Virus genome (UHGV): UHGV-0144289
DNA: 35,479 nucleotides
DNA from: a virus
Reading direction: 5' to 3' (one strand)
Part shown: piece after piece, positions 2,260 to 31,476 of the stretch
Layout: each line of letters begins with the position of its first letter
Position numbering within the stretch: the stretch's first letter is position 1
Position numbers and translations under genes: made by a program
Notes under the pieces: generated by a model
The model's input: only the letters and a program-made list of their open reading frames with translations
What the model was told of the DNA's origin: nothing
Database searches by the model: none

Positions 2260-2791
2260 GGTGAGCGCCCGGCACTGGGTTTAACAGTTCTTCCGGTATC
2301 TCTCCGCCGTCAGCGGTAATCTGGGCCGCCGCTGCCTGTGCTGATTCAATCGCTTCCTTGATGGCTTTCTTGTCCGGAGTGACTAACGTCTGAACTGTCA
2401 CTAATTCATCCGGCAGTAATTCATCATTATCGATCACGACGTTTATAGCTCCCTTACGTGCGGTAAAGGTATTTTTGGCGGTTTTAACCGTATCCTGACC
2501 GGCGGCCAGTAGACACTGGAGAACATATTTCTTCAGGTTCGTGATCTTACCTTCGAATGATTTTTTGCGGGCGGCAAGGCGTTTGGCCTCTTCATCGCAG
2601 GTTTTTGCCAGGCCTTCCAGATTGCGAACGTGGACGAAAACGGCATCCAGTTTATCGCCGAGTTGTAACTCAAGACCTTCCATTGTGTCGGCGATCATTT
2701 CAGGAGACAGACCAGCACCGTCTTCGTTTTCCAGTAGTGCCTGGAGTTTTGACATATCGGCTGCGATAGCAATTGCAGTGGTGGAAGTCAT
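2225..2791 (-). CDS. Siphovirus Gp157-family protein (commonly found next to phage recombinases)
   Basis: 188 aa; coiled-coil N-terminus and the pattern EEAKRLAARKKSFEGKITNLKKYVLQCL...TFTARKG...VIDNDELLPDEL, which resembles the Gp157 family as I recall it; immediately downstream of the annealing-protein gene. Confidence 0.5.
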   Translation of the reverse strand: MTSTTAIAIAADMSKLQALLENEDGAGLSPEMIADTMEGLELQLGDKLDAVFVHVRNLEGLAKTCDEEAKRLAARKKSFEGKITNLKKYVLQCLLAAGQDTVKTAKNTFTARKGAINVVIDNDELLPDELVTVQTLVTPDKKAIKEAIESAQAAAAQITADGGEIPEELLNPVPGAHLEIGERSLQVR

Positions 2792-4941
2792 TATGCTTTC
2801 TCCTCGGCTTTATTCAGTTCTTTAATGCGCCCATCTTTGATGGAGATGAGTCGGCGGAGCCGGCCAGACAGATAACGTTCATGCTGCGTGTCGCCGTTGG
2901 CCTGGGCGGCTTTAATGTGAACATCGATCTCACGTGCGATAGGGGAAAACACACCGTTGATTTCGTTCACCGTCACGCCATGCGCCAGGGTATTAGCAAC
3001 GCGGCTTAATTTATCGTCAAACTCCTGGCGGAGCCGTGCTGCATCTTCGGCTGATTCGCTGGCGTTCTTCAGGTCAAACTCGGCCTTGTTCTTCTGGCGG
3101 TACTCCAGATTGTCGTAAAGCCCCATAAAGATATCGCCACTGAATCCGAGGCCGGATAACGCTTTTTTGGTCGCATCTGTCAGTGATTTTTTGGCTGCTT
3201 CGCCGTCGCAGGTGATCCCGTATTTACTACCGTAAATGTAGGGTGTACAGCCGTATGCTGTTTCCTCACCTCGTACTCCGTTCAGGATGTACCAGAGCCG
3301 GACAGTCACAACATGGTGCTGTTCGTTGACGGTATTACCATTCCCATCAAGAACCAGCTCCCACGATGCGTTGTTGTCTTTGCCTTTTACCTGCCGAGTG
3401 ATCGGCGCGCCAATATCGAAACGCTCTTCAACAATATCCACGCCCCAGCCGATGCCCTTAGGGCCAAACTCACGTGTGGCAAGCATGGTCATGTAGGTAC
3501 CGTTGATCGAGGTGCCACCGCCGTTCTGTGTGAAAGCCTTAGTAAACCTTTCGTCGGTTTTAAATACGCGTTTCCAGAGGTCTAAATTGTCTTCCCCGAT
3601 AATTGGTTTTCCGACAGCCTGCACAACATCCTCAGCGTTAGGCAGGCTTTCAGCGTGAGCGATTTGTTTTGCTAAACGCTCGGAATCATCAGCCAGTTTT
3701 TCAGCCTTAACGCTTAACTTCTCTTCCGGCTCTGCACCTTCACCAGAGGCATATACGCCATAACCCATATCATTGAGCGTCTCACGCGCCTGTTTGGCCT
3801 GAGTGTCGGTTACAACCGGCTGCTGCGCTTCCACTTTTTCGCCCACGTTTGAGGCGGTATTTTGCGTCGCCTCTGGTTGTTTAACGGATCCTGTCTCGGT
3901 TTCCTCAAAGCGACCGTTGGCCGCCAGCCATGAATCGATATGGCGGCGCAGGCTGTCAGGGAAATGGTAGGTATCTTTCGCCGGTACGTTTTGTACCACG
4001 CCGAAGATGCTGGCACGGTCGTATTTGAGTATCTGCGGCGTGGTGTGCAGCGATGCTGACCAGCGTTTAAAATCTTCCCGGTCATCGGAAATCATCTTCT
4101 TAGCGTCCAGAAGGTTTCCGGATAGTACCGGCGCATCAGGCGCCAGCGGGAGAAGGGCGGTAGCGATCTCCTGATCCAGCGTTGCATAAGTGTGTTTATA
4201 CCCGCGCTTAGAAATTACCACGGGTGTTTTATCATCGGTGCTGGTGCTGAGAGCGGTATTTTTATATACGCCGGGGGCCAGTTCGTCGCGCTTGCCCGGA
4301 TTCTCAAGCCAGCGTTTAACGAACTGAGAGATAGCCGCTTTGCCCGGCGTCTGGTTTTCAAAGTGGGAGAAAATACCCTGAATAAGATTGTTCAGACCTT
4401 CCACATGCATGCTTTGAACCGGGAAGTTATTTTGCAGGGCGCACAGAACATTAAAGTTAAAGCGATCTTCCTCTTCAAATTCCCCATCGTGGTTTTTCAG
4501 ATTATCCAGATAATCCACAACCTGAGAATAAAGATGGCCATCAATCGCCGCGGTGCTAAAAAGCAGGACGGCAGCAAAGCGTTCATCAGGGGAAACGGTC
4601 ATCAGGTCGATCACTTCATCGTCGGCTGGTAAACCTGCACCACTTCCGGAAGCGCTATCCTGCGCAGTAGAAACCCATTTTTCACCGTCAAAAGTATGCT
4701 GCTGGGCGAATGACTCATCGAACTGGCCAACGGTCGGCAGCGGCTGGCCTTCAACGTGTTCCCACAGTTTCGGTTTGAAATAGTTGTCACCATTGGCCGG
4801 GTATGATTCCCAGAGTTTGCCGGTCATAATGCTTTCGGCCACTTTTTTGTTTGGCGCATCGATGGCGATCGCCAGCTGCACGGCGCCGCAGTCTTTAATC
4901 GCCGATTTCTTTGGCTCAAATGAGCCGTTGTAGATGGTCAT
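2791..4941 (-). CDS. Large recombination protein with a C-terminal Erf/Rad52-like single-strand annealing domain and a ~430-aa N-terminal region of unknown function
   Basis: 716 aa from the ATG at 4941 (preceded by GAGGAAAGACCA). The C-terminal third (YGCTPYIYGSKYGITCDGEAAKKSLTDATKKALSGLGFSGDIFMG) resembles the conserved core of Erf/Rad52-type annealing proteins. Position in the early-left operon fits a recombination function. Confidence 0.6.
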   Translation of the reverse strand: MTIYNGSFEPKKSAIKDCGAVQLAIAIDAPNKKVAESIMTGKLWESYPANGDNYFKPKLWEHVEGQPLPTVGQFDESFAQQHTFDGEKWVSTAQDSASGSGAGLPADDEVIDLMTVSPDERFAAVLLFSTAAIDGHLYSQVVDYLDNLKNHDGEFEEEDRFNFNVLCALQNNFPVQSMHVEGLNNLIQGIFSHFENQTPGKAAISQFVKRWLENPGKRDELAPGVYKNTALSTSTDDKTPVVISKRGYKHTYATLDQEIATALLPLAPDAPVLSGNLLDAKKMISDDREDFKRWSASLHTTPQILKYDRASIFGVVQNVPAKDTYHFPDSLRRHIDSWLAANGRFEETETGSVKQPEATQNTASNVGEKVEAQQPVVTDTQAKQARETLNDMGYGVYASGEGAEPEEKLSVKAEKLADDSERLAKQIAHAESLPNAEDVVQAVGKPIIGEDNLDLWKRVFKTDERFTKAFTQNGGGTSINGTYMTMLATREFGPKGIGWGVDIVEERFDIGAPITRQVKGKDNNASWELVLDGNGNTVNEQHHVVTVRLWYILNGVRGEETAYGCTPYIYGSKYGITCDGEAAKKSLTDATKKALSGLGFSGDIFMGLYDNLEYRQKNKAEFDLKNASESAEDAARLRQEFDDKLSRVANTLAHGVTVNEINGVFSPIAREIDVHIKAAQANGDTQHERYLSGRLRRLISIKDGRIKELNKAEEKA

Positions 4942-5809: not shown

Positions 5810-6223
5810 TTATTTTTTTGGAGTGTTTTTTTTCTTTTTTACCAAAAGTAACTCATCAAACAATCGCTGGAATCCGTCAACTTTATCTTTCAACTCATTG
5901 ATATGTCTATCTTTTTCTGATTCAGGTAGAGAATCAAAAAGATCAAGCAGTAGCTTTTGGCGATCATCTAACCGAGGTAAAAGCTCTTCTGCCTTCAACG
6001 GTTCATCGCTATCGGTACCGTTAAGTAACCATGTCGGAGAGCAACGAAGAGCCTCAGCGAGAGAAAACAGATTTTGCCCTTTTGGGGTGTTAATACCTGC
6101 TTCCCACTTGTAAACGCTGACGCCAGATATGCCAACGGCATCGGCGAGCTGCTGTTGTGTCAAACCAAGCTCTTTCCGTCTCGATGTAATGCGATCGTTA
6201 AAGGTCAATTTTTTCATATCCAT
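5810..6223 (-). CDS. Prophage repressor, XRE-family helix-turn-helix protein with no recognisable autocleavage (peptidase S24-like) domain
   Basis: 137 aa; N-terminal HTH (LTQQQLADAVGISGVSVYKWEAG); divergent from the cro-like gene across an operator region; the C-terminal part is acidic/coiled-coil with a lysine tail and shows no LexA/cI-type catalytic signature. Confidence 0.8.
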   Translation of the reverse strand: MDMKKLTFNDRITSRRKELGLTQQQLADAVGISGVSVYKWEAGINTPKGQNLFSLAEALRCSPTWLLNGTDSDEPLKAEELLPRLDDRQKLLLDLFDSLPESEKDRHINELKDKVDGFQRLFDELLLVKKKKNTPKK

Positions 6224-7242: not shown

Positions 7243-8235
7243 ATGAATATTTTGCCATTACTCGACAGGCCGATCGCCTTCCAGCGCAGTTTTATTCGTC
7301 TGGATATTGGTGTGACGGCTGCGCTGTTTCTATCACAAATGACCTACTGGACTAACCGGTCCGACGATGACGGATGGGTGTATAAAACTCAGGAAGAATG
7401 GGAAGAAGAAACCGGCCTTTCCCGCTATGAGCAGGAGGGGGCGCGTAAGAAACTCCGCTCAATTGGTGTACTACTGGAAAAAAGAAAAGGCGTTCCTGCG
7501 CGACTTTTCTACAAAGTAGATAATAACGTTTTATATCAGGTGCTTGCAGCTGCAAACAAGAATGCGGAAAAACCACATACTGGAATGCGGAAAACCACCA
7601 AACAAGTCAGGGGAAAACCAGCAAACTTTCTTACAGAGAATACTACAGAGAATATATATACCCCTAACCCCTTAGAGGAGGAAGGCGTTGAGTTAATTCT
7701 TTCTGATGCACAAAAAGCGCTGGAATTTTACAACGAGCAAACCGGTACCCGCTGCCGTGACCTGAAACCGTTTGTGATGATGCTGACGCCGACCACCACC
7801 CGGGAAGGGTACACACTGGACGAATTGCAGTTAGTTATCCGCTGGGTGCTGGCCACATGGCGCCGCCGTGGCGATAGCCTGCCGAAGCCAGCGAACATCT
7901 GCCGGGTAAACCGCTTTGATGGTTATCTCGCTGACGCTGAAGCATGGGCGGTGACCGAAACCGATATTGATCCGGAAGCCGTTATGAACGGCTACAACGA
8001 AATTTTTGCTGATGTTCTGCCCGCTGCTGAATTGGACACAGACCGCCGCCGGATGATCACCCGTCTGGCCGCCCATATGAAAAACAAAACCACGGGCGCA
8101 TTTCTGGGCTATTTCGAAAAATTCCGCGCTGACGCCTCCGATTTTTACTTTGGTGAAAATGGCGGATGGCGCGCCAGCTTTGACTACCTGATGAAGCCTG
8201 AAACATTGCGTAAAACTCGTGAGGGATCGCTATGA
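7243..8235 (+). CDS. Phage replication initiation / replisome organiser protein
   Basis: 330 aa; N-terminal winged-helix-like domain; directly upstream of and overlapping the helicase gene by 4 nt, the usual O/P-type arrangement. Confidence 0.6.
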   Translation: MNILPLLDRPIAFQRSFIRLDIGVTAALFLSQMTYWTNRSDDDGWVYKTQEEWEEETGLSRYEQEGARKKLRSIGVLLEKRKGVPARLFYKVDNNVLYQVLAAANKNAEKPHTGMRKTTKQVRGKPANFLTENTTENIYTPNPLEEEGVELILSDAQKALEFYNEQTGTRCRDLKPFVMMLTPTTTREGYTLDELQLVIRWVLATWRRRGDSLPKPANICRVNRFDGYLADAEAWAVTETDIDPEAVMNGYNEIFADVLPAAELDTDRRRMITRLAAHMKNKTTGAFLGYFEKFRADASDFYFGENGGWRASFDYLMKPETLRKTREGSL

Positions 8236-9620
8236 CTCCGCAGGAACTGGAATCTTGTGTACTGGCTGGACTGCTGAACGGTGGAGCAAGTCCGGACGCT
8301 TTCGACGTGATCGCATCGACGCCTGAAGAATCATTCAGCATTGTTTTTCATCGTCGCGCCTTCTCGGAAATCAAAAAACAGGCGTTGACGAACGGTCTGA
8401 TCGATATGCTGTTTGTCAGTGAGGCTCTGGGAGGGAGTAGCCTGGCTGATTTATCAGAGATTTCGCGTATGCCCGCCACGGTACCAAACCTGAAAGGTTA
8501 CGCCGGGAAAATGGTGAAGGCGTGGCGCAGCCGCCGTATGGCTGAATTACTGCAAAATGGTGCTGATGGTATCCGCCAGGCGAATAATCAGGAGCAGCGC
8601 GATGAGATTGTCGAAACTGCCGTGGCGCAGCTGCTGGACATGACCGGCGACACTGGCGACGTGCAGCCGGTACACATGAGCGAATTATTGCCGGTGTACA
8701 TGGAAACCATGCAGAAGCGCATGGACGGCGAAGAGGGTACTCGCAACCTGAAAACCGGGATCGAGGAACTTGACGATGCGACCGGCGGAATCAACCTGCA
8801 GGATTTGATTGTCGTCGCTGGGCGTCCGGGCATGGGAAAAACAGAATTTGCGCTGAAGATTGTCGATGGTGTTACCGCTGCTGGCGGTGGCGCGTTGATA
8901 TTCAGCATGGAAATGGCCGCTGCGCAAATCGTAGAACGCGCTCTAGCGGGTTCTGGCAACATGTCAGTGTCACGCCTGCGTAATCCCCTCGATATGCAGG
9001 ACGAGGACTGGGCGCGCTTTACAGCGGCCATGGAGACCATGAACGGGCGCGATATCTGGATCGTTGATGCTACCGATCTGACGATTGAGCAAATCCGCGC
9101 CGTTGCCGAAACGCATAAGCGCCGGTATCCGCATCTGGCGATGATCGTTGTCGATTACCTTGGCCTGATTAAAAAACCGAAGGCAGAGCGTAACGACCTC
9201 GCGATCGCCCACATATCCCGAAACTTAAAAACTATGGCTATGCGCCTGCATACGCCGACGTTCGCGCTTAGCCAGCTTTCCCGCGCCGTGGATTCCCGCC
9301 CGGCGGCCCAGCGCCGCCCGGTCATGTCAGACCTGCGCGATTCCGGTTCCATTGAGCAGGACGCCGACAGCATCATGTTTCTGTACCGCGATGAGGTTTA
9401 CAACCCGGAAAGCCCGGCGGCTGGCGTCGCTGAAATTATCCTGGGTAAAAGCCGCTTCAGCGCCGCAGGCGCAATTATTTATCAGGAATTTAAAAACGGA
9501 CACTTTCTGTCAATGGATCAGCATGTTGGCAAAGAGAAAACACGTATCCAACTGGAGGCCGCGAAACCCCGGAAACAACCCCGTAAATACTCAGAGAAAT
9601 TCAATACCGATGCATTTTAA
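8232..9620 (+). CDS. Replicative DNA helicase, DnaB family
   Basis: 462 aa; Walker A GRPGMGKTEF, and DnaB signatures VVDYLGLIK, LSQLSRAVDSR, SGSIEQDADSIMFLYRDEVY. Confidence 0.9.
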   Translation: MTPQELESCVLAGLLNGGASPDAFDVIASTPEESFSIVFHRRAFSEIKKQALTNGLIDMLFVSEALGGSSLADLSEISRMPATVPNLKGYAGKMVKAWRSRRMAELLQNGADGIRQANNQEQRDEIVETAVAQLLDMTGDTGDVQPVHMSELLPVYMETMQKRMDGEEGTRNLKTGIEELDDATGGINLQDLIVVAGRPGMGKTEFALKIVDGVTAAGGGALIFSMEMAAAQIVERALAGSGNMSVSRLRNPLDMQDEDWARFTAAMETMNGRDIWIVDATDLTIEQIRAVAETHKRRYPHLAMIVVDYLGLIKKPKAERNDLAIAHISRNLKTMAMRLHTPTFALSQLSRAVDSRPAAQRRPVMSDLRDSGSIEQDADSIMFLYRDEVYNPESPAAGVAEIILGKSRFSAAGAIIYQEFKNGHFLSMDQHVGKEKTRIQLEAAKPRKQPRKYSEKFNTDAF

Positions 9621-10330: not shown

Positions 10331-10564
10331 ATGGCCGGGCAATCAGATTACTTGCCGCCCGGCTTACCGCTTAATCGCGCCAAATGGCCGCAGGAGTGCC
10401 AGATCAAAGAGCACTACGACATGCGGGCCGCGGCACTCATACGCCAGCTGTTCGAGAAAAAAGTTACTCGACAGGCCATCGTAGAGCAGATTGCAGCGAC
10501 GCCGGAAAGCTACCGGGAGTTTTTCAAAGAACGATTAAATTTTTGGCGGGAGAAGCGGACATGA
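10331..10564 (+). CDS. Hypothetical small protein
   Basis: 77-aa ORF tightly packed between neighbours. Confidence 0.45.
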   Translation: MAGQSDYLPPGLPLNRAKWPQECQIKEHYDMRAAALIRQLFEKKVTRQAIVEQIAATPESYREFFKERLNFWREKRT

Positions 10565-10731
10565 AATTTTCAACACCTGATTTTATGCATTGCAGCCGCA
10601 GGACGCTGATGCTGTTCGTACTCAGTGCAAACGTTGTTGGCTGGATAGTCATTATCGCTCTGATATGGGCTGGATGTGAGGTTGCACAGTGGGCGCTGGA
10701 ATGTCTCCGCAGTAGTGGGGTGCTTGCGTGA
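10561..10731 (+). CDS. Small membrane protein (single hydrophobic helix)
   Basis: 56 aa; hydrophobic stretch LMLFVLSANVVGWIVIIALIWAG; start overlaps the previous stop (ATGA) and its stop overlaps the methyltransferase start. Confidence 0.45.
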   Translation: MKFSTPDFMHCSRRTLMLFVLSANVVGWIVIIALIWAGCEVAQWALECLRSSGVLA

Positions 10732-11318
10732 ATAACAAATACACCCTGATTTATGCGGATCCTCCATGGACTTACCGCGACAAAGCCAAAGACGGGGAAC
10801 GCGGCGCCGGGCACAAATACCAGACCATGACTGTGCTCGATATCTGCCGTCTCCCGGTCTGGGAACTGGCCGCTGAAAACTGCCTGCTGGCTATGTGGTG
10901 GGTACCGACTCAGCCGCTGGAGGCGTTGCGAGTAGTCGAGGCGTGGGGCTTCCGTCTGATGACCATGAAAGGCTTTACGTGGAACAAATGCTACAGCCGG
11001 CAGACCGACAAACTGGCCCTTGGAATGGGCCATTTGACCAGGGCGAACAGCGAGGATTGCCTTTTCGCTGTGCAGGGGAAATTACCCGCCCGGATGGATG
11101 CAGGGATCGTTCAGTCATTCACGGCCCCGCGTCTGGAGCATTCGCGCAAACCGGATATCGTGCGCGAAAAGCTGGTGCAGCTGCTGGGCGATGTGCCGCG
11201 TATTGAGTTATTCGCCCGCCAGTCGTCGCATGGTTTCGACGTGTGGGGCAATCAGTGTGAGTCGCCAGCGGTGGCGCTGCTGCCGGGCATTGCAGAATAT
11301 ATCGGGGAGGTAGCCTAA
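10728..11318 (+). CDS. DNA N6-adenine methyltransferase, MT-A70 family
   Basis: 196 aa; catalytic motif IYADPPW near the N-terminus, typical of MT-A70-like phage adenine methyltransferases. Confidence 0.85.
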   Translation: MNNKYTLIYADPPWTYRDKAKDGERGAGHKYQTMTVLDICRLPVWELAAENCLLAMWWVPTQPLEALRVVEAWGFRLMTMKGFTWNKCYSRQTDKLALGMGHLTRANSEDCLFAVQGKLPARMDAGIVQSFTAPRLEHSRKPDIVREKLVQLLGDVPRIELFARQSSHGFDVWGNQCESPAVALLPGIAEYIGEVA

Positions 11319-11320
11319 CC

Positions 11321-11551
11321 ATGAAAAACACTATTCAGGATTTAATGAATCACCAGTTCGCCATGCTGGAAACCGTCACCGATCCCAATATCAAAGGCGA
11401 CCTGCTTCAGGAAGAGTTATCGAGGGCTAAAGCGGTAGTGGAAATCGTCGGGGTGATGGTCGGTACTTATCGAGTTGCGCTCGACGCCCAGAAGGCTATT
11501 TATGACGGTACCGCAGGCAATGTACCTAAGATTATGGGGATCGAAAAATGA
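11321..11551 (+). CDS. Hypothetical small protein
   Basis: 76-aa ORF with start 2 nt after the methyltransferase stop. Confidence 0.5.
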   Translation: MKNTIQDLMNHQFAMLETVTDPNIKGDLLQEELSRAKAVVEIVGVMVGTYRVALDAQKAIYDGTAGNVPKIMGIEK

Positions 11552-12165
11552 TAGAGAAATACACTCCAGCCCAGGAGTTGTTTATCAAGCAGCATATTAA
11601 AAGCTCCACTGCGCGGGAATTAACTGAAATGTTTAACGCTAAATTTGGTACAAATAAGAGCGTGGGCGCTATTCGTATCTGGTGCAAATCTCATGGGTTA
11701 GGAAAGCAGTTTTTAATTGAGCCGCGCTATTCCGATGAGCAGCTGACTTTCATTTATGCCAATAGGAATCTAACGAATGCTGAACTTACAGAAAGGTTCA
11801 ACAGGAGATTCGGTACCGATAAAAAACCTGACAATATCAAGGATGTAAAGATAGCTCGCGGATGGACACGCGAACCTAAAGGCCGGAAACGCATTCTTCC
11901 ACAGTACATCACTGTTAATAAAGAGAAAATTAGACTCGATGTATACGTATATGAATGCGTACATGGAAAATTACCGTCTGGTTATTCGGTTATCCATCTG
12001 GATAATGATTTGAATAACAACAATATCAATAATCTACGCGCGGCACCTAAAGAAATACGCCGCCTGTTCTCTGGGGCGGGCTACTCAAAAATGCCGCAGG
12101 TTCTTGCTCCGGCGCTGTATGCACAAGTTATGCTCCGCCATGCAATTAAACGATTATCCAGCTAA
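11548..12165 (+). CDS. HNH homing-type endonuclease with two N-terminal DNA-binding repeats
   Basis: 205 aa; duplicated ~45-aa module (ELTEMFNAKFGTNKSVGAIRIW / ELTERFNRRFGTDKKPDNIKDVKIARGW) and HNH core VHGKLPSGYSVIHLDNDLNNNNINNL; markedly AT-rich compared with its neighbours. Confidence 0.75.
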   Translation: MIEKYTPAQELFIKQHIKSSTARELTEMFNAKFGTNKSVGAIRIWCKSHGLGKQFLIEPRYSDEQLTFIYANRNLTNAELTERFNRRFGTDKKPDNIKDVKIARGWTREPKGRKRILPQYITVNKEKIRLDVYVYECVHGKLPSGYSVIHLDNDLNNNNINNLRAAPKEIRRLFSGAGYSKMPQVLAPALYAQVMLRHAIKRLSS

Positions 12166-12177
12166 CTGAGGTGGTTA

Positions 12178-12516
12178 ATGGCTAAATCATCCGCAGAACG
12201 TAAAGCCGCGCAGAGGGCGCGGCAATCTGCCGCCGGCAACCGCAAAATTGAGCTGGTTCTCGATACGCAGGAACTGGACATGCTGGCGCATAACTGCGCC
12301 GCCCGGCGTCCGGGGCGTGAACCGTACGAACTGGCCGAGTACATCGCTATGCTGATCCGTCAGGATGATGCGCGGCTTAGTGGCCACATCAAATCGATCA
12401 GCAAACGTCTGTGTAGAAAATGCGGTGAGACGCTGCCGATCACCTCCTGCCCGTGTGCTGGTGATTCGCAATGCTGGGTAACGCGAGGGTGGCACGAAAC
12501 CAAACTGTCAGCATAG
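12178..12516 (+). CDS. Hypothetical protein with C-terminal cysteine cluster
   Basis: 112 aa; basic N-terminus, C-terminal CRKCGETLPITSCPCAGDSQC suggests a small zinc-binding element. Confidence 0.55.
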   Translation: MAKSSAERKAAQRARQSAAGNRKIELVLDTQELDMLAHNCAARRPGREPYELAEYIAMLIRQDDARLSGHIKSISKRLCRKCGETLPITSCPCAGDSQCWVTRGWHETKLSA

Positions 12517-12539
12517 CGAACAACCATACCAGTTAAAAC

Positions 12540-12568
12540 AGAACCGTCAGAAATGGCGGTTTTCTTTT
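12540..12568 (+). terminator. Weak terminator-like hairpin after the 112-aa gene
   Basis: AACCG...CGGTT stem followed by TTCTTTTG; large loop, so weak. Confidence 0.3.
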
Positions 12569-12658
12569 GAATTCAATCGGATATTTTGAGATTTATTGTT
12601 GATTTTTAACGATTCGTGCTCTTAAAAATTTGCGCTCACTGTCAGTTGGTAGTATATA

Positions 12659-12678
12659 TACTGTAATTTTATACAGTA
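12659..12678. promoter_or_regulatory. LexA binding site (SOS box) TACTGTAATTTTATACAGTA
   Basis: Perfect CTGT-N8-ACAG dyad with flanking TA, matching the enterobacterial SOS-box consensus; located ~20 nt upstream of the RBS of the next small gene and overlapping a probable -10 (TATATA). Confidence 0.8.
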
Positions 12679-12698
12679 TTGTTGTTGAGGGAGAGGTA

Positions 12699-12890
12699 GT
12701 GGTTGATAAGAAAGACGCAGGAGACCTTCTCCCCGACGATGGTGATGTACTGATAACGTGTGAAAATGGGAAGATTAAGAAGACCAGAATTGTCCATTCC
12801 GATGAGCACGTAGCGACACTTAACGCGTTGTTTGAATTAGCTAAATTGACGGGTTATACCATTATCAAACCAGACGGCAATATGCTATAA
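12699..12890 (+). CDS. Small SOS-regulated protein, candidate antirepressor
   Basis: 63 aa from GTG at 12699 (RBS GAGGGAGAGG); the longer TTG-initiated frame from 12630 would run through the promoter/operator and is less plausible; AT-rich island. Confidence 0.5.
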   Translation: MVDKKDAGDLLPDDGDVLITCENGKIKKTRIVHSDEHVATLNALFELAKLTGYTIIKPDGNML

Positions 12891-12958
12891 TTACCCCGTT
12901 GGCCTGAACACCCAACACCATGTAATTCTGAACAATTGCTGCGCTAAAGGGGAACCCA

Positions 12959-13555
12959 ATGGCGCAGTATTCTTTTGTAAAAGCACCCGGCGGTGTATTA
13001 ATTCCGGCAACGCCTGACGCCCGCGAATTCTTAGAAAAAAAAGTCCGCATGGGCGGTATTCTGTATGCGGATTTTAAACAGGCAAGGAACTCGGCATTTC
13101 ACCGTAAATTTTTTGCCCTCCTGAATCTGGGATTTGATTACTGGCAACCTTCCGGCGGTGCAATATCGCCAGCCGATAAAAAACTGGTTCGGGGTTACGT
13201 GCAGCTGGTGGCCCACTATGCCGGGCATGGCGACACATTGCAGGAACTGGCGGATCAGTATCTGCGCGATGAGGCAGAAAAACGCGCCGGCAATATCAGC
13301 GCGGTTAAATCGTTTGAAGCTTTCCGTTCCTGGGTAACTATCGAGGCCGGTTTTTATACCGAATACCAGATGCCTGATGGCACCACCCGCAAGGAACCCA
13401 AATCCATATCGTTCGCAAAAATGGACGATGTAGAATTTTCCCAGCTGTACAAATCCGTATTAGACGTCCTCTGGAATTTTATTTTATTCCGCACCTTCCC
13501 TAATCAGCAGGCAGCAGAAAACGCAGCCTCTCAGCTTTTCAGTTATGCGGCCTGA
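12959..13555 (+). CDS. DUF1367-like phage protein
   Basis: 198 aa; resembles the conserved lambdoid nin-region protein family (MAQYSFVKAPGG...FHRKFFALLNLGF) as I recall it. Confidence 0.6.
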   Translation: MAQYSFVKAPGGVLIPATPDAREFLEKKVRMGGILYADFKQARNSAFHRKFFALLNLGFDYWQPSGGAISPADKKLVRGYVQLVAHYAGHGDTLQELADQYLRDEAEKRAGNISAVKSFEAFRSWVTIEAGFYTEYQMPDGTTRKEPKSISFAKMDDVEFSQLYKSVLDVLWNFILFRTFPNQQAAENAASQLFSYAA

Positions 13556-13565
13556 GGCGGACACT

Positions 13566-14042
13566 ATGAAATTCAATATTCGCTCTCATATCGTCGAGAT
13601 GGATGAGGCCGACGCCTTGATCTTTGTGGGTTACCCCATCCACATCGGCTCGAATGGTTATGCAAAAGTCACCGGCTGGCATTTTGGCAAGGAAAGATAC
13701 CTTCATCGCGTCATCATGAATGCGGGGCCTCATGATGTTGTAGATCACATTGATGGTAATAAGCTCAACTGCACCCGCTCAAATCTGAGGATCTGCACAC
13801 AGGCCGACAATACCAAAAATGTGGGCTTGAGGAGTGACAATAGCTCAGGAATTCCGGGAATTTACTGGGTATCCACTCGCCTAAAATGGGCGGCGCAAAT
13901 TTCAGTTGATGGCAGGACCGTTAGTTTAGGCCGCTTTGATGAAATTGCCGATGCTATCAATGCCCGCCGGAAAGCAGAAGATTTGTATTACGGGGAGTTT
14001 GCAGCCAGCAAGGGGGTGCTTTGTGAAAAAGCGCGCCAGTAA
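13566..14042 (+). CDS. HNH endonuclease with AP2-like DNA-binding domain
   Basis: 158 aa from the ATG at 13566 (RBS GAGG); HNH core HRVIMNAGPHDVVDHIDGNKLNCTRSNLRICTQADN followed by AP2-like segment GIPGIYWVSTRLKWAAQISVDGRTVSLGRFDEIADA. Confidence 0.75.
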   Translation: MKFNIRSHIVEMDEADALIFVGYPIHIGSNGYAKVTGWHFGKERYLHRVIMNAGPHDVVDHIDGNKLNCTRSNLRICTQADNTKNVGLRSDNSSGIPGIYWVSTRLKWAAQISVDGRTVSLGRFDEIADAINARRKAEDLYYGEFAASKGVLCEKARQ

Positions 14043-14337
14043 ATCAGATAAGCAATATTTCCAAGATCTCGTTGAGATAGGTTGTATTGTCTGCAAAGTA
14101 CACTTCGGCGTGTACTCCGCCCCCGAAATCCATCACATCCGAACCGGTCAGGGCATAGCCCAGCGCGCCGACCACAAAGAAACTCTCCCGCTTTGCCCGC
14201 CACACCACAGAACCGGCGGACACGGCGTAGCTATCCACGCAGGGCAAAAAACATGGGAAGAAAACTACGGCACGGAGACTGAATTGCTCGAACAGGTCAC
14301 TAACGAGATAAAGGAATTACGTCTATGCAGAATTTAA
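14023..14337 (+). CDS. Ref-like (recombination enhancement function) HNH-type nuclease
   Basis: ~104 aa from GTG at 14023 (RBS AGGGGGT); Cys/His-rich motif CIVCKVH...EIHHIRTG...LCPPHHRTG. Family assignment from memory; the start codon is uncertain (the ORF is open from 13936). Confidence 0.4.
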   Translation: MKKRASKSDKQYFQDLVEIGCIVCKVHFGVYSAPEIHHIRTGQGIAQRADHKETLPLCPPHHRTGGHGVAIHAGQKTWEENYGTETELLEQVTNEIKELRLCRI

Positions 14338-29527: not shown

Positions 29528-29869
29528 ATGCATTCAGATTACAAAACTCGCCTTACTGCTCTTAGCGATAAGCTCACCGACGTAGTTCTGGAAGAAGCCG
29601 ATCCGGATAACTGGCCGGGGGCAGGGAAGGAAATCACAAAGCACACTAAACAGGAACGCGGTGATCGGTACTGGCATAAGAAGAACGCGGCCGCATCGCT
29701 GACGCTGCTGGTAAAAGTCCATTCGCTGATTGGCATGCATACGCGCGGGGGGACGCCTAAACCCGGCGAGGATCCGGACGATGAAGCATTCCGCCTGGGG
29801 CAACAGGTATCTGCGGCTGAACGGGCAGCACAGGAAGTTATCGAACGCATACAACAGCGGAAAAAATGA
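29528..29869 (+). CDS. Putative terminase small subunit
   Basis: 113 aa; immediately upstream of and overlapping the large-subunit gene by 4 nt; assignment by position only. Confidence 0.4.
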   Translation: MHSDYKTRLTALSDKLTDVVLEEADPDNWPGAGKEITKHTKQERGDRYWHKKNAAASLTLLVKVHSLIGMHTRGGTPKPGEDPDDEAFRLGQQVSAAERAAQEVIERIQQRKK

Positions 29870-31476
29870 TTTCATTCGTCGCCTTTTTCATCATATGGGC
29901 GGAGCGGATGGGGTGGGAGGTTCCCGACTGCCATTATCGAGCCTGCCACTGGTTGGAACACCGCGGGGATCTCGCGGTGCTTCGCTGTTTTCGTGGCTTT
30001 GGTAAATCTACCATTCTGGCGGTGTATAACGCATGGCGATATTACCAGAACCGCCAGTACCGCATTCTTCACCAGTCTGAAGCTGACGGCACCGCGTACA
30101 AAACCAGCCGCGATACGCAGAACGTTTTACGCAATCACCCACTGACCAAAGGCATGCTACCGGACGGACAGGGAACCGTTGAACAGTGGTGGGTTAACGG
30201 CTCTCTGGATATGCGTAACGGCAGCATGTACGCAAAGGGGATCCTCTCTAACGTTACCTCGGCCCGCGCTGATGAATGCCAGAACGATGACGTAGAAGTA
30301 CCCCGCAATATCCAGACGCCAGAGGCGCGGGAAAAGCTGCGTTATCGTCTCGGTGAACAGACACACATTCTTGTCCCCGGCGGGCGAAAGCTGTTTATCG
30401 GCACGCCGCATACCCACGATAGCCTTTACGATGAGGTTGAATCTATGGGCGCCGACTGTCTGACCATCAAACTATTCGGTAAAGAATTTAGAATCGAGGA
30501 AAAACAGGCCACTGCGAGCCGTTACTCGTTACCGTTCCGGCCGGAATATGTTTTCGTCGGTATTCACATTGGCGCGCGACTGCTCGTTGAAGGTGTTGAT
30601 TATCGTCTTAACGATGACGGTATCGAGTTTGCCGAGGCTCCCGGCACCACGGTTGACTGTTACGCCGATTGTGAATGGCCAGAAAGGTTCACTCCGGAGG
30701 AAATGACAAAGCGCCGTCGCGAGACTCGCACAATTAACGAATGGGACAGCCAGTACCAGCTGCACAGTAAACCGGTTGGCGAGGTTCGTCTCGATCCCGA
30801 CCGCATACGCGAATACAACGTACAGCCTGAAATCCGGTACGCGAACCGCTCCTGCTCGATGTGGCTTGGCCAGACGCAAATTGTTGGTGCTGTTGCCTGG
30901 TGGGATGTGGCCACCGGCAAAGTTAAGGCCGACGCCTCGGCGTTCTCTCTGATTTTCACCGACGCACGCGGGCATCTGTACTGGCATGTTTGCCAGGGGC
31001 TTACGGGCGAACTGGCGGAATTCGACGACAACGACAAAATCACCGGCGGTCAGGTGATGCAGATTAAAGAGCTGGTGCTTAAATACCAGATCCCGCTGGT
31101 CTGCGTCGAGGTGAACGGCCCGGGCAGCTTTGCCGGGAAATTGCTGATTCAGGCACTAAAGGGTACCGGCTGCGGCGTACGGGAAGAATTCAGCGTGACC
31201 AATAAACAAAAGCGCATCCTCGATGCATTCGAAGCGCCGCTGTCGTCGCGCTTCCTCTGGGCGCATACCGACGTGCTCGACGGCCCAATGTATGACCAGA
31301 TGCGCGACTTTAACCCGGCGCTGACTAATCAGCCAGATGACTTTATCGACTCTGGCTCTGGCGCAATCAGCTCAACACCAGTGCGCATTGGTAAATTGGT
31401 CGGGATTCCGACCGCACAGGCGCGGGAACATTGGCAACCAAATGATGGCGATCACATGGTCGCCGTAGATTACTAG
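29866..31476 (+). CDS. Terminase large subunit (T7 gp19-like)
   Basis: 536 aa; Walker A-like FRGFGKST in the N-terminal ATPase domain, acidic catalytic residues downstream; size matches T7-type terminases. Confidence 0.8.
   Translation: MISFVAFFIIWAERMGWEVPDCHYRACHWLEHRGDLAVLRCFRGFGKSTILAVYNAWRYYQNRQYRILHQSEADGTAYKTSRDTQNVLRNHPLTKGMLPDGQGTVEQWWVNGSLDMRNGSMYAKGILSNVTSARADECQNDDVEVPRNIQTPEAREKLRYRLGEQTHILVPGGRKLFIGTPHTHDSLYDEVESMGADCLTIKLFGKEFRIEEKQATASRYSLPFRPEYVFVGIHIGARLLVEGVDYRLNDDGIEFAEAPGTTVDCYADCEWPERFTPEEMTKRRRETRTINEWDSQYQLHSKPVGEVRLDPDRIREYNVQPEIRYANRSCSMWLGQTQIVGAVAWWDVATGKVKADASAFSLIFTDARGHLYWHVCQGLTGELAEFDDNDKITGGQVMQIKELVLKYQIPLVCVEVNGPGSFAGKLLIQALKGTGCGVREEFSVTNKQKRILDAFEAPLSSRFLWAHTDVLDGPMYDQMRDFNPALTNQPDDFIDSGSGAISSTPVRIGKLVGIPTAQAREHWQPNDGDHMVAVDY
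31398..31413. repeat. Late-region hairpin motif GGTCGGGATTCCGACC, copy 3 (inside the 3' end of the terminase gene)
   Basis: Part of an identical 20-mer shared with 18685-18704; ~80 nt upstream of the tail-fibre start. Confidence 0.8.

Follow-up and report, generated by a model that had tools for sequence, protein, structure and literature searches.

Genetic organization of the accessory region

The viral genome UHGV-0144289 was analyzed as a single stretch of 35,479 nucleotides (nt), to which we refer in its full length as the window. It represents a temperate phage or prophage, with an integrase gene on the minus strand (583-1599), genes for an O-like initiator and DnaB at 7243-9620, T7-like genes for portal, capsid and tail in a block from 15493 onward, and a terL gene at 29866-31476. 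Here, we focus on positions 10728-14337, the accessory ("nin-like") region positioned between the replication and the structural genes of this temperate phage of the Klebsiella group. An earlier note on this DNA had recognized in this interval genes for an MT-A70 methyltransferase, two HNH endonucleases and a Ref-like nuclease. We found all four on the plus strand at the positions then reported, with two start codons revised, and p76, reg112, a terminator, a promoter with a LexA box, p63 and the gene for a DUF1367 protein can now be added to them. Four accessory modules, each independent of the others, make up the interval, and the terminator and the promoter split it into two transcription units:

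10728-11318, plus strand: MT-A70 methyltransferase gene (PF05063, phrog_359, PADLOC MTase_II)
11321-11551, plus strand: p76 (phrog_2044)
11548-12165, plus strand: HNH205 (PF13392, phrog_1891)
12178-12516, plus strand: reg112 (phrog_536)
12540-12573, plus strand: terminator-like hairpin (12540-12563; 10-pair stem) with T-run
12630-12678, plus strand: promoter-like site with LexA box (12659-12678), from sequence motifs
12699-12890, plus strand: p63, encoding 63 amino acids (phrog_340)
12959-13555, plus strand: DUF1367 protein gene (PF07105, phrog_319)
13500-14150, strand not applicable: tract moving with the HNH-AP2 gene, from identity profiles
13566-14042, plus strand: HNH-AP2 gene (PF13392, phrog_99, PADLOC HEase)
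14023-14337, plus strand: gene for the Ref-like nuclease, 104 amino acids (PF16786)

The genes present, their motifs, distributions and junctions and the mosaic tract are shown by sequence comparison with three sets of loci; what the proteins do biochemically, control by LexA and the target of cleavage are inferred. The first set consists of 91 loci retrieved via DUF1367 and the GenBank phage BUCT708 (92 relatives), the second of 38 loci retrieved via p76, and the third of 80 viral loci retrieved via an alignment of the p76 family. Proteins identical to those of 10728-14337 are carried by Klebsiella chromosomes of 5.3 Mb, where they are named by NCBI as MT-A70 methyltransferase, HNH endonuclease, DUF1367 and Ref-family nuclease; NCBIfam gave no match for any of the eight proteins. 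The locus L001 (GenBank OM816834 and OM816835; "Stenotrophomonas phage vB_SmeS_BUCT708/709") shares about 85% DNA identity with the Klebsiella-type backbone of the window over the replication and accessory genes, and its Stenotrophomonas host label looks doubtful.

The HNH-AP2 gene interrupts the start of the Ref gene

The HNH-AP2 protein comprises 158 amino acids and is most likely translated from the ATG at 13566 instead of from 13545. It matches PF13392 (E = 2e-7), phrog_99 (E = 7e-42) and the homing-endonuclease (HEase) models of PADLOC. Its catalytic motif, VVDHIDGNKLNCTRSNLRICTQADN, is intact, and the DH...N...N residues align with those of I-HmuI. The AP2 domain (PF00847) scores 19.6 bits against a cut-off of 33.3 (E = 1e-3), while PHROG families of the HNH-AP2 type are matched strongly. 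The ratio of non-synonymous to synonymous substitution rates (dN/dS) of the gene is 0.08-0.09.

Only three of the 92 loci carry this gene. In relatives that lack it, the ATG of the Ref gene is located about 12 nt behind the DUF1367 stop codon; in those that possess it, the former ribosome-binding site and ATG of the Ref gene now start the HNH-AP2 gene, and Ref restarts at a GTG situated 20 nt before the HNH-AP2 stop codon, with its first ~110 nt strongly diverged. Identity profiles (50 nt) delimit the exchanged DNA from both sides. Compared with its closest endonuclease-free relatives (L013, L016), the window is 94-100% identical everywhere but in the segment of about 13500-14150, and compared with L081, a locus with a different backbone, it is 92-100% identical only within this very segment. 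The co-moving tract of ~650 bp hence extends from the last ~50 nt of the DUF1367 gene through HNH-AP2 into the Ref gene, of which it takes in the initial ~125 nt. Such a tract shared by otherwise divergent backbones is the pattern expected of homing with co-conversion of the flanks.

The earlier suggestion that HNH-AP2 is an invading selfish endonuclease is supported by its presence in 3 of 92 relatives and by the tract that moves along with it across backbones. When insertion sites were compared with those of endonuclease-free relatives, the sporadic occurrence of the gene at the Ref start was evident, whereas a change in flanking composition was not: the GC content of the HNH-AP2 gene is 48.6% and that of its flanks 49-50%. 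As judged from these sequence comparisons, we are dealing with a genuine mobile, free-standing homing-endonuclease gene that is sporadically inserted exactly at the Ref start codon. It has invaded the junction between the DUF1367 and Ref genes, taken over the ribosome-binding site and ATG of Ref, and dragged ~170 bp of flanking DNA along. Its likely cleavage target would be the 5' part of endonuclease-free Ref genes, a suggestion that derives from locus L220: there, an HNH-AP2 homologue of 76% identity is preceded by another gene than in the window, yet is directly followed by a Ref gene whose linked N-terminus is the same.

The L220 homologue (2501-3266), which follows a large open reading frame resembling nucleoside triphosphatases and precedes Ref and RusA genes, has DY in place of DH at the catalytic His, yet its dN/dS is 0.08; it may be an inactivated endonuclease or one with a changed function. 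A seemingly second homing endonuclease at the DUF1367/Ref junction of L035 (6664-7632) proved to be a transposase of the IS5/IS903 type.

The Ref-like nuclease and DUF1367 belong to a backbone unit headed by a LexA box

The Ref-like gene most likely starts with the GTG at 14023, and not with the TTG at 13936, and then overlaps the end of the HNH-AP2 gene by 20 nt. The resulting protein of 104 amino acids matches PF16786 (DUF968/RecA_dep_nuc) with 51.9 bits (cut-off 26.9; E = 9e-14), and NCBI annotates identical 104-residue proteins as members of the Ref family. Its zinc-finger HNH motifs (CxxC...HH...CxxHH) align with those of Ref from phage P1 (Protein Data Bank (PDB) entry 3plw; E = 5e-3) and with the C-terminal domain of Gp16 from the Staphylococcus phage PhiNM1 (E = 4e-3), the residues of the window protein being CIVC ... 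HH ... LCPPHH. P1 Ref comprises 186 residues and the alignment starts at its residue 85; the N-terminal DNA-binding region is absent from the window protein. The Ref gene adjoins that of DUF1367 in 62 of the 92 relatives, which identifies it as a backbone gene and not, as the earlier note had envisaged, as an invader.

DUF1367 is well supported as a family assignment (PF07105, E = 1e-83; phrog_319, E = 6e-71), and PHROGs groups it with the NinB/Orf recombination mediators. We considered the protein as a homologue of NinB; profile comparisons by hhalign with lambda NinB (E = 0.22) and with the N-terminal domain of Gp16 (E = 0.44) were not significant, leaving a grouping at the PHROG level.

The AT-rich spacer in front of this unit (12517-12698; 34% GC) harbors both the terminator-like hairpin and the promoter-like site. 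The hairpin, a stem of 10 pairs followed by CTTTTGAATT, is predicted to end the upstream transcription unit. The promoter-like sequence TTGCGC-17 nt-TATATA (hexamers as read from the sequence) is followed by the LexA box TACTGTAATTTTATACAGTA at 12659-12678, which overlaps the promoter and is the sole perfect match of the CTGT-N8-ACAG type in the window. An AT-rich CTG-N10-CAG site is found at the same position and distance from the DUF1367 gene in 87 of 92 related loci. Its spacer varies, and conserved CTG...CAG arms around a varying spacer are the signature of a selected operator. The first gene behind the box is p63, whose exact protein sequence is present on 520 contigs. The putatively LexA-controlled promoter would drive p63, the DUF1367 gene and the gene for the Ref-type nuclease, and a RecA-dependent nuclease would consequently be made as RecA filaments form; expression of the inserted endonuclease would be coupled to RecA activation as well.

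The prophage repressor of the window (5810-6223, minus strand; 137 amino acids) is annotated as a helix-turn-helix (HTH) protein only. A perfect LexA box at the promoter in front of p63, together with such a short, HTH-only repressor, fits an SOS-controlled antirepressor circuit.

p76 and HNH205 form a portable two-gene cassette

The TGA stop codon of p76 overlaps the ATG of HNH205 (ATGA), and the two genes are translationally coupled. p76 encodes 76 amino acids, for which AlphaFold predicts two helices in a helical hairpin (predicted local distance difference test score, pLDDT, 90). This model has no informative structural match in the PDB, and searches of Pfam, NCBIfam and PADLOC with p76 gave no match; 53 members of its family likewise lack a Pfam model. 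The family falls into 310 clusters at 50% identity in a search of representatives. PHROGs (phrog_2044) and GenBank label p76 as a fragment of the RNA polymerase beta subunit, an assignment that we rejected given the missing Pfam support in the 53 members and the missing structural match; the label looks like a propagated weak match to COG0086.

The 205-residue HNH205 protein matches PF13392 between residues 133 and 169 (38.3 bits; cut-off 24.8; E = 1e-9) and belongs to phrog_1891. Its AlphaFold model (pLDDT 85) consists of two three-helix bundles of the HTH type, a beta-beta-alpha core and a long conserved C-terminal helix, and its fold is matched by the paired HTH of Mos1/SETMAR, by I-HmuI and by the cores of viral HNH proteins; the core superimposes on viral HNH homing endonucleases with a root-mean-square deviation of 0.8-3 A over 55-66 columns. 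Sequence searches of the PDB with HNH205 returned noise only, and none of the restriction-enzyme and homing-endonuclease models of PADLOC match it. Two properties ascribed to HNH205 in the earlier note were confirmed: its N-terminal repeats are truly duplicated (local alignment score 65, compared with a mean of 20 +/- 4 for shuffled sequences; none of 2000 shuffles reached 65), and its gene is AT-rich (42% GC versus 58% in both neighbours).

In the active site of I-HmuI (D74/H75/N96), the Asp preceding the general-base His and the Asn 21 residues behind it serve as the metal ligands. HNH205 retains the His (H150) and possesses I149 and R171 at the two ligand positions, which are occupied by D60 and N82 in HNH-AP2. 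No conserved replacement ligand was detected in the HNH205 family, the alpha helix included. Among 78 distinct family members, position 150 is a Phe in 52 and a His in 23, the latter mostly from an enterobacterial clade in which H150, D152 and N162 are kept. HNH205 is, from its sequence, probably not a canonical nuclease. The notion that it is a homing-type endonuclease stands in that the gene is a foreign-looking, sporadic insert (present in 20 of the 41 relatives with MT-A70); it fails for a plain homing endonuclease in view of the constant 76-residue partner, the absence of ligands of the I-HmuI type, and a family in which Phe mostly replaces the catalytic His.

Neither gene is decaying: with dN/dS values of 0.02-0.09 for p76 and 0.06-0.13 for HNH205, purifying selection on the pair is strong. 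In every context compared (the family of the window, L003 and unrelated backbones), homology begins at the ATG of p76 and ends at the stop codon of HNH205, and we detected neither a target duplication nor conserved flanks at these edges in the backbones compared. Homologues of p76 (35-100% identity) were sampled in 80 viral loci, and 78 of these have an open reading frame of the HNH205 family that starts at most 400 nt downstream on the same strand, usually overlapping p76; of the two exceptions, one is a truncated locus and the other has its HNH205 partner upstream. The pair is also found in the Staphylococcus phage B236, the pneumococcal prophage IPP61 and the Vibrio phage H20. Across the p76-family loci, its neighbours belong to 144 PHROGs on the upstream side and to 108 on the downstream side; they bear no relation to one another between loci and are typically early or replication genes. 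In eight further loci the pair resides in other backbones devoid of MT-A70, either behind a VRR-NUC gene and before a gene for an SNF2 helicase, or beside C5 methylases. The comparisons identify p76-HNH205, at the level of sequence, as a portable, obligate and ancient two-gene module that spans phages of Gram-negative and Gram-positive bacteria. We found no description of a pair formed by p76 and an HNH_3-like protein with a mostly dead active site.

Some proteins carry the p76 domain behind an N-terminal extension, either a zinc-ribbon-like Cys cluster or a winged helix (among P0225, P0232, P0237, P0317, P0338, P0220, P0223 and P0298). P0223 and P0298 appear to be fusions of p76 with an HTH repeat of the partner (HNH205) family; these may be artefacts of frameshifts or gene calling, and we did not use them as evidence.

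A lone MT-A70 methyltransferase in a variable cargo slot

The MT-A70 protein (196 amino acids) matches Pfam PF05063 over positions 1-172 of the 172 in the profile (83.6 bits; cut-off 23.9; E = 2e-23) and is further assigned to phrog_359 and to PADLOC MTase_II (E = 7e-78). A mutated catalytic motif would have spoken against an active enzyme; DPPW is intact at residues 11-14 (ADPPW, 10-14), where it aligns with the DPPW of the Tetrahymena MT-A70 protein 7f4r, the best sequence match in the PDB (E = 8e-11), and it is conserved in 40 of 42 relatives. Homologues are present in 517 phage records, among them more than 100 Shiga toxin (Stx)-converting phages at 77-78% identity; with the methylase of the Stx phage P13374, the window enzyme shares 78% identity along 192 residues, and it lacks the last 12 residues of the Stx-phage enzyme at the C-terminus.

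The nearest relative that has been studied, M.EcoPA8orf6770P, an enzyme of Stx2a prophages close to M.EcoGV, is reported to have weak activity on DNA by itself, to prefer 16S rRNA in 30S subunits when combined with its winged-HTH partner PNB-2 encoded upstream of it, and to raise spontaneous prophage induction (Gong, Chakraborty & Koudelka 2023, PMC10810198). When overproduced, M.EcoGV acts on GATC in vivo (cited in PMC10810198). GATC specificity is also reported for two MT-A70 DNA methylases of the beta class, PhiBZS1_p32 of the Serratia phage BZS1 and M.EfaBMDam of Tn1549 (PMC7556043). No homologue of PNB-2 was recovered when the window and the 91 related loci were searched by tblastn with ORF08 of P13374, the best value in the window being E = 1.5.

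The earlier view of a methylase with an intact catalytic motif and no obvious cognate restriction enzyme holds. We regard MT-A70 as a lone methylase whose substrate, to go by its relatives, is most probably DNA, perhaps at GATC-like sites, and less probably rRNA. Most likely, the nucleic acids of both the phage and its host are methylated with no cognate nuclease involved, and an anti-restriction role is plausible.

The methylase gene begins with a GTG that overlaps the stop codon of a gene for a predicted membrane protein of 56 amino acids (10561-10731; GTGA), which is present in only eight related loci; a ParB-HTH gene precedes the methylase gene in other related loci. MT-A70 is located at the left edge of a hypervariable slot for cargo genes, which is bounded by the theta-like gene and p63 (10567-12646 in the window). 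In the related loci, the length of this slot varies between 736 and 5585 bp, and its genes are arranged in 58 different orders in 78 loci. Besides MT-A70, they encode C5 methylases of two kinds, N6_N4 methylases and Dam-type D12 methylases, as well as a ParB-HTH protein, an AAA_21+RloB pair (AbiL-like), an HNH_5 protein and AT-rich gene pairs of unknown function. BUCT708, for instance, has RloB and an ATPase where the window has the p76-HNH205 cassette. Since relatives fill this slot with other lone methylases or with genes for defence, MT-A70 is to be seen as one of several alternative lone methylases within it. The right edge of the slot is closed in 38 of the 78 loci by reg112, a protein of 112 amino acids with a basic N-terminus and a Cys-rich C-terminus (CxxC...CxC; phrog_536, E = 2e-50). 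In L034, HNH205 ends in a fusion with a remnant of the 5' end of reg112, behind which come a further insert and then a complete second copy of reg112.

Evaluation of competing explanations

Taken as a whole, the interval is best explained by four independent modules in two transcription units, with a LexA-driven backbone unit for Ref that was invaded by HNH-AP2; we assign to this reading a probability of roughly 0.68. The earlier note had left room for a compact pairing of MT-A70 and HNH205 (10728-12165) as a restriction-like or exclusion system, with or without p76, in which the methylase shields the phage DNA from the adjacent nuclease. The genes are indeed adjacent, tightly packed and in one operon, 20 of the 21 cassettes of this phage family follow MT-A70, and the cassette sometimes lies beside C5 methylases in other backbones. 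The distributions are, however, independent in both directions. MT-A70 occurs without the cassette in 21 loci, some of which carry alleles 96-98% identical to that of the window, and the cassette occurs without MT-A70 in one locus of this phage family (L003), in L120-L127 and in distant loci, with more than 60 loci carrying it in other backbones. Methylases are merely occasional neighbours within the wide p76/HNH205 family, the catalytic site of HNH205 is degenerate, and no restriction-enzyme model matches. With methylase and cassette inherited independently, we reject restriction-modification, which we judge to be very improbable. Still further from the evidence is a cluster without any mobile component, namely a vertically inherited backbone in which all differences reflect deletions. 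The genes for Ref, DUF1367, p63 and reg112 are widely kept at fixed positions, as this idea would have it; it is scarcely credible in the face of an HNH-AP2 tract that is at least 98% identical in two backbones otherwise 70-85% identical or non-homologous around it, a p76-HNH205 cassette in at least four unrelated backbones, and a slot with 58 architectures in 78 loci.

In the composite reading that we favor, p76 and HNH205 are the two subunits of a factor derived from a homing endonuclease, which would bind DNA in a sequence-specific manner and retain residual nicking activity at most; the cassette would be passed on as cargo among phage backbones that are not related. A more far-reaching proposal, which we put at somewhat below even odds, is an unrecognized ancient and obligate phage module in which the scaffold of a homing endonuclease has been turned into a non-catalytic, sequence-specific DNA-binding subunit that is complexed with p76 and is carried as portable cargo in early or replication regions of very diverse phages. 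HNH205 as an active free-standing enzyme for homing or nicking, with p76 as a helper for specificity, loading or self-protection and a cassette that spreads by cutting cassette-free relatives, is a less likely though serious contender: the PF13392 match exceeds its cut-off, the core fold resembles that of viral HNH homing endonucleases, H150, D152 and N162 are retained in the enterobacterial clade, the AT-rich gene is sporadic among near-identical backbones, and HNH alleles have been exchanged behind a nearly invariant p76 (in L021, L038 and L075, HNH205 is 68-70% identical while p76 is 99-100% identical). Set against this are the absence of I-HmuI-type metal ligands and of a conserved ligand on the alpha helix, a Phe-bearing majority of the family that is equally conserved and equally paired with p76, and a cassette with which no flanking tract moves and whose many unrelated contexts mean that no single "empty site" can be the target of HNH205. 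For MT-A70, an alternative that we consider unlikely is that the enzyme, rather than serving as an anti-restriction DNA methylase, acts chiefly on RNA (16S rRNA) or regulates prophage induction. The properties of M.EcoPA8orf6770P, weak on DNA alone, directed to 16S rRNA by PNB-2 and stimulating spontaneous induction (PMC10810198), and the close similarity of the window enzyme to its P13374 homologue speak for this possibility; the missing PNB-2 homologue, the missing 12 C-terminal residues, the GATC specificity of overproduced M.EcoGV (cited in PMC10810198) and of PhiBZS1_p32 (PMC7556043), and the clear DNA methylases housed in the same slot of this phage family speak against it.

Several observations weigh against the composite picture of four independent modules or parts of it. 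The association of the cassette with MT-A70 in this phage family (20 of 21) is statistically marked (Fisher p = 4e-6), a value to be read with the phylogenetic non-independence of the loci in mind. A second sigma-70-like site (TTATCA-18-TATAAT with a TG extension) is present at 12862-12891, at the end of the p63 gene, and could, by its sequence, be a LexA-independent promoter for DUF1367-Ref. The HNH205 protein of the window and the whole enterobacterial clade keep the general-base His, which leaves room for a non-canonical metal site and real nicking, and the hhalign register between HNH205 and HNH-AP2 is weak (E = 0.037). Furthermore, the methylase substrate is ambiguous, with related enzymes reported as specific either for GATC (PMC7556043) or, together with PNB-2, for 16S rRNA (PMC10810198), and the link between DUF1367 and NinB is drawn from the PHROG grouping alone.

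For the most part, the cluster reflects ordinary phage mosaicism, the general picture of which our findings leave unchanged; the obligate pair of a small protein and an HNH-like protein is the single new point, and through it the region reveals a widespread two-gene module. HNH-AP2 is a clean case, provided by nature, of a free-standing homing-endonuclease gene that is seen in two backbones along with the flanking tract moved by it; it is placed between a recombination-mediator-like gene and a gene for a nuclease of the RecA-dependent type, downstream of a LexA box. Three annotation labels in use for these proteins are misleading: "HNH endonuclease" is applied to a family in which the catalytic His is mostly missing, "RNA polymerase beta subunit" to the 76-residue partner p76, and "DNA methyltransferase" to an MT-A70 enzyme although rRNA is preferred by the closest relative that has been studied.

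Comparison with known systems

With M.EcoPA8orf6770P and M.EcoGV, the methylase of the window shares the MT-A70 fold, the DPPW motif, its location on a prophage and the lack of a cognate restriction enzyme. It differs from them in that a gene for a 56-residue membrane protein, and not that for PNB-2, lies upstream, in the C-terminus that is shorter by 12 residues, and in its replication-proximal slot, whereas the Stx gene adjoins the integrase gene. PhiBZS1_p32 and M.EfaBMDam belong to the same Pfam family and are likewise lone methylases on phages or mobile elements; at ~45% identity their specificity is not transferable to the window enzyme, and their genes, unlike that of the window, adjoin integrase genes. 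The phiES15 homologue, which is 70% identical to p32 (PMC7556043), has 46% identity to the MT-A70 protein studied here.

HNH205 resembles the canonical HNH_3 (PF13392) homing endonucleases of phages (T7-group gp7.7-like) in its Pfam match and its beta-beta-alpha core, and its N-terminal DNA-binding repeats are like those of many homing endonucleases. In contrast to the canonical enzymes, it has an obligate, translationally coupled partner of 76 residues, lacks the metal ligands, carries Phe for His in two thirds of its family, possesses a conserved extra C-terminal helix and has no fixed insertion site.

Gp16 of phage PhiNM1 is a RecA-dependent nuclease in which a NinB-like domain is fused to an HNH zinc finger (PMC12817073). 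The Ref-like protein of the window has the CxxC...HH...CxxHH core of both P1 Ref (3plw) and Gp16 and matches RecA_dep_nuc above the cut-off, and its gene directly follows one that PHROGs groups with NinB; by analogy with the Gp16 fusion, DUF1367 and Ref may be its split counterpart. In contrast to Gp16, there are two separate genes in the window, and the relation between DUF1367 and NinB was not confirmed by profile comparison; in contrast to P1 Ref, the protein is devoid of an N-terminal region of ~76 residues, and its RecA dependence is putative.

Free-standing HNH-AP2 homing endonucleases are known from T4-related and Xanthomonas phages (PMC2993671, PMC2248197). The HNH-AP2 protein of the window has in common with them and with I-HmuI (PDB 1u3e) the HNH_3 core, its DH...N...N residues being aligned to those of I-HmuI. 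Its C-terminal AP2-like DNA-binding domain is a candidate, with an AP2 match below the Pfam cut-off, and its cleavage activity is putative. Like its counterparts in the T4-related and Xanthomonas phages, the HNH-AP2 gene is intergenic between conserved genes, sporadic and accompanied by flanks that move along; it is set apart from them by its residence in a temperate enterobacterial phage, where it usurps the start signals of Ref downstream of a LexA box.

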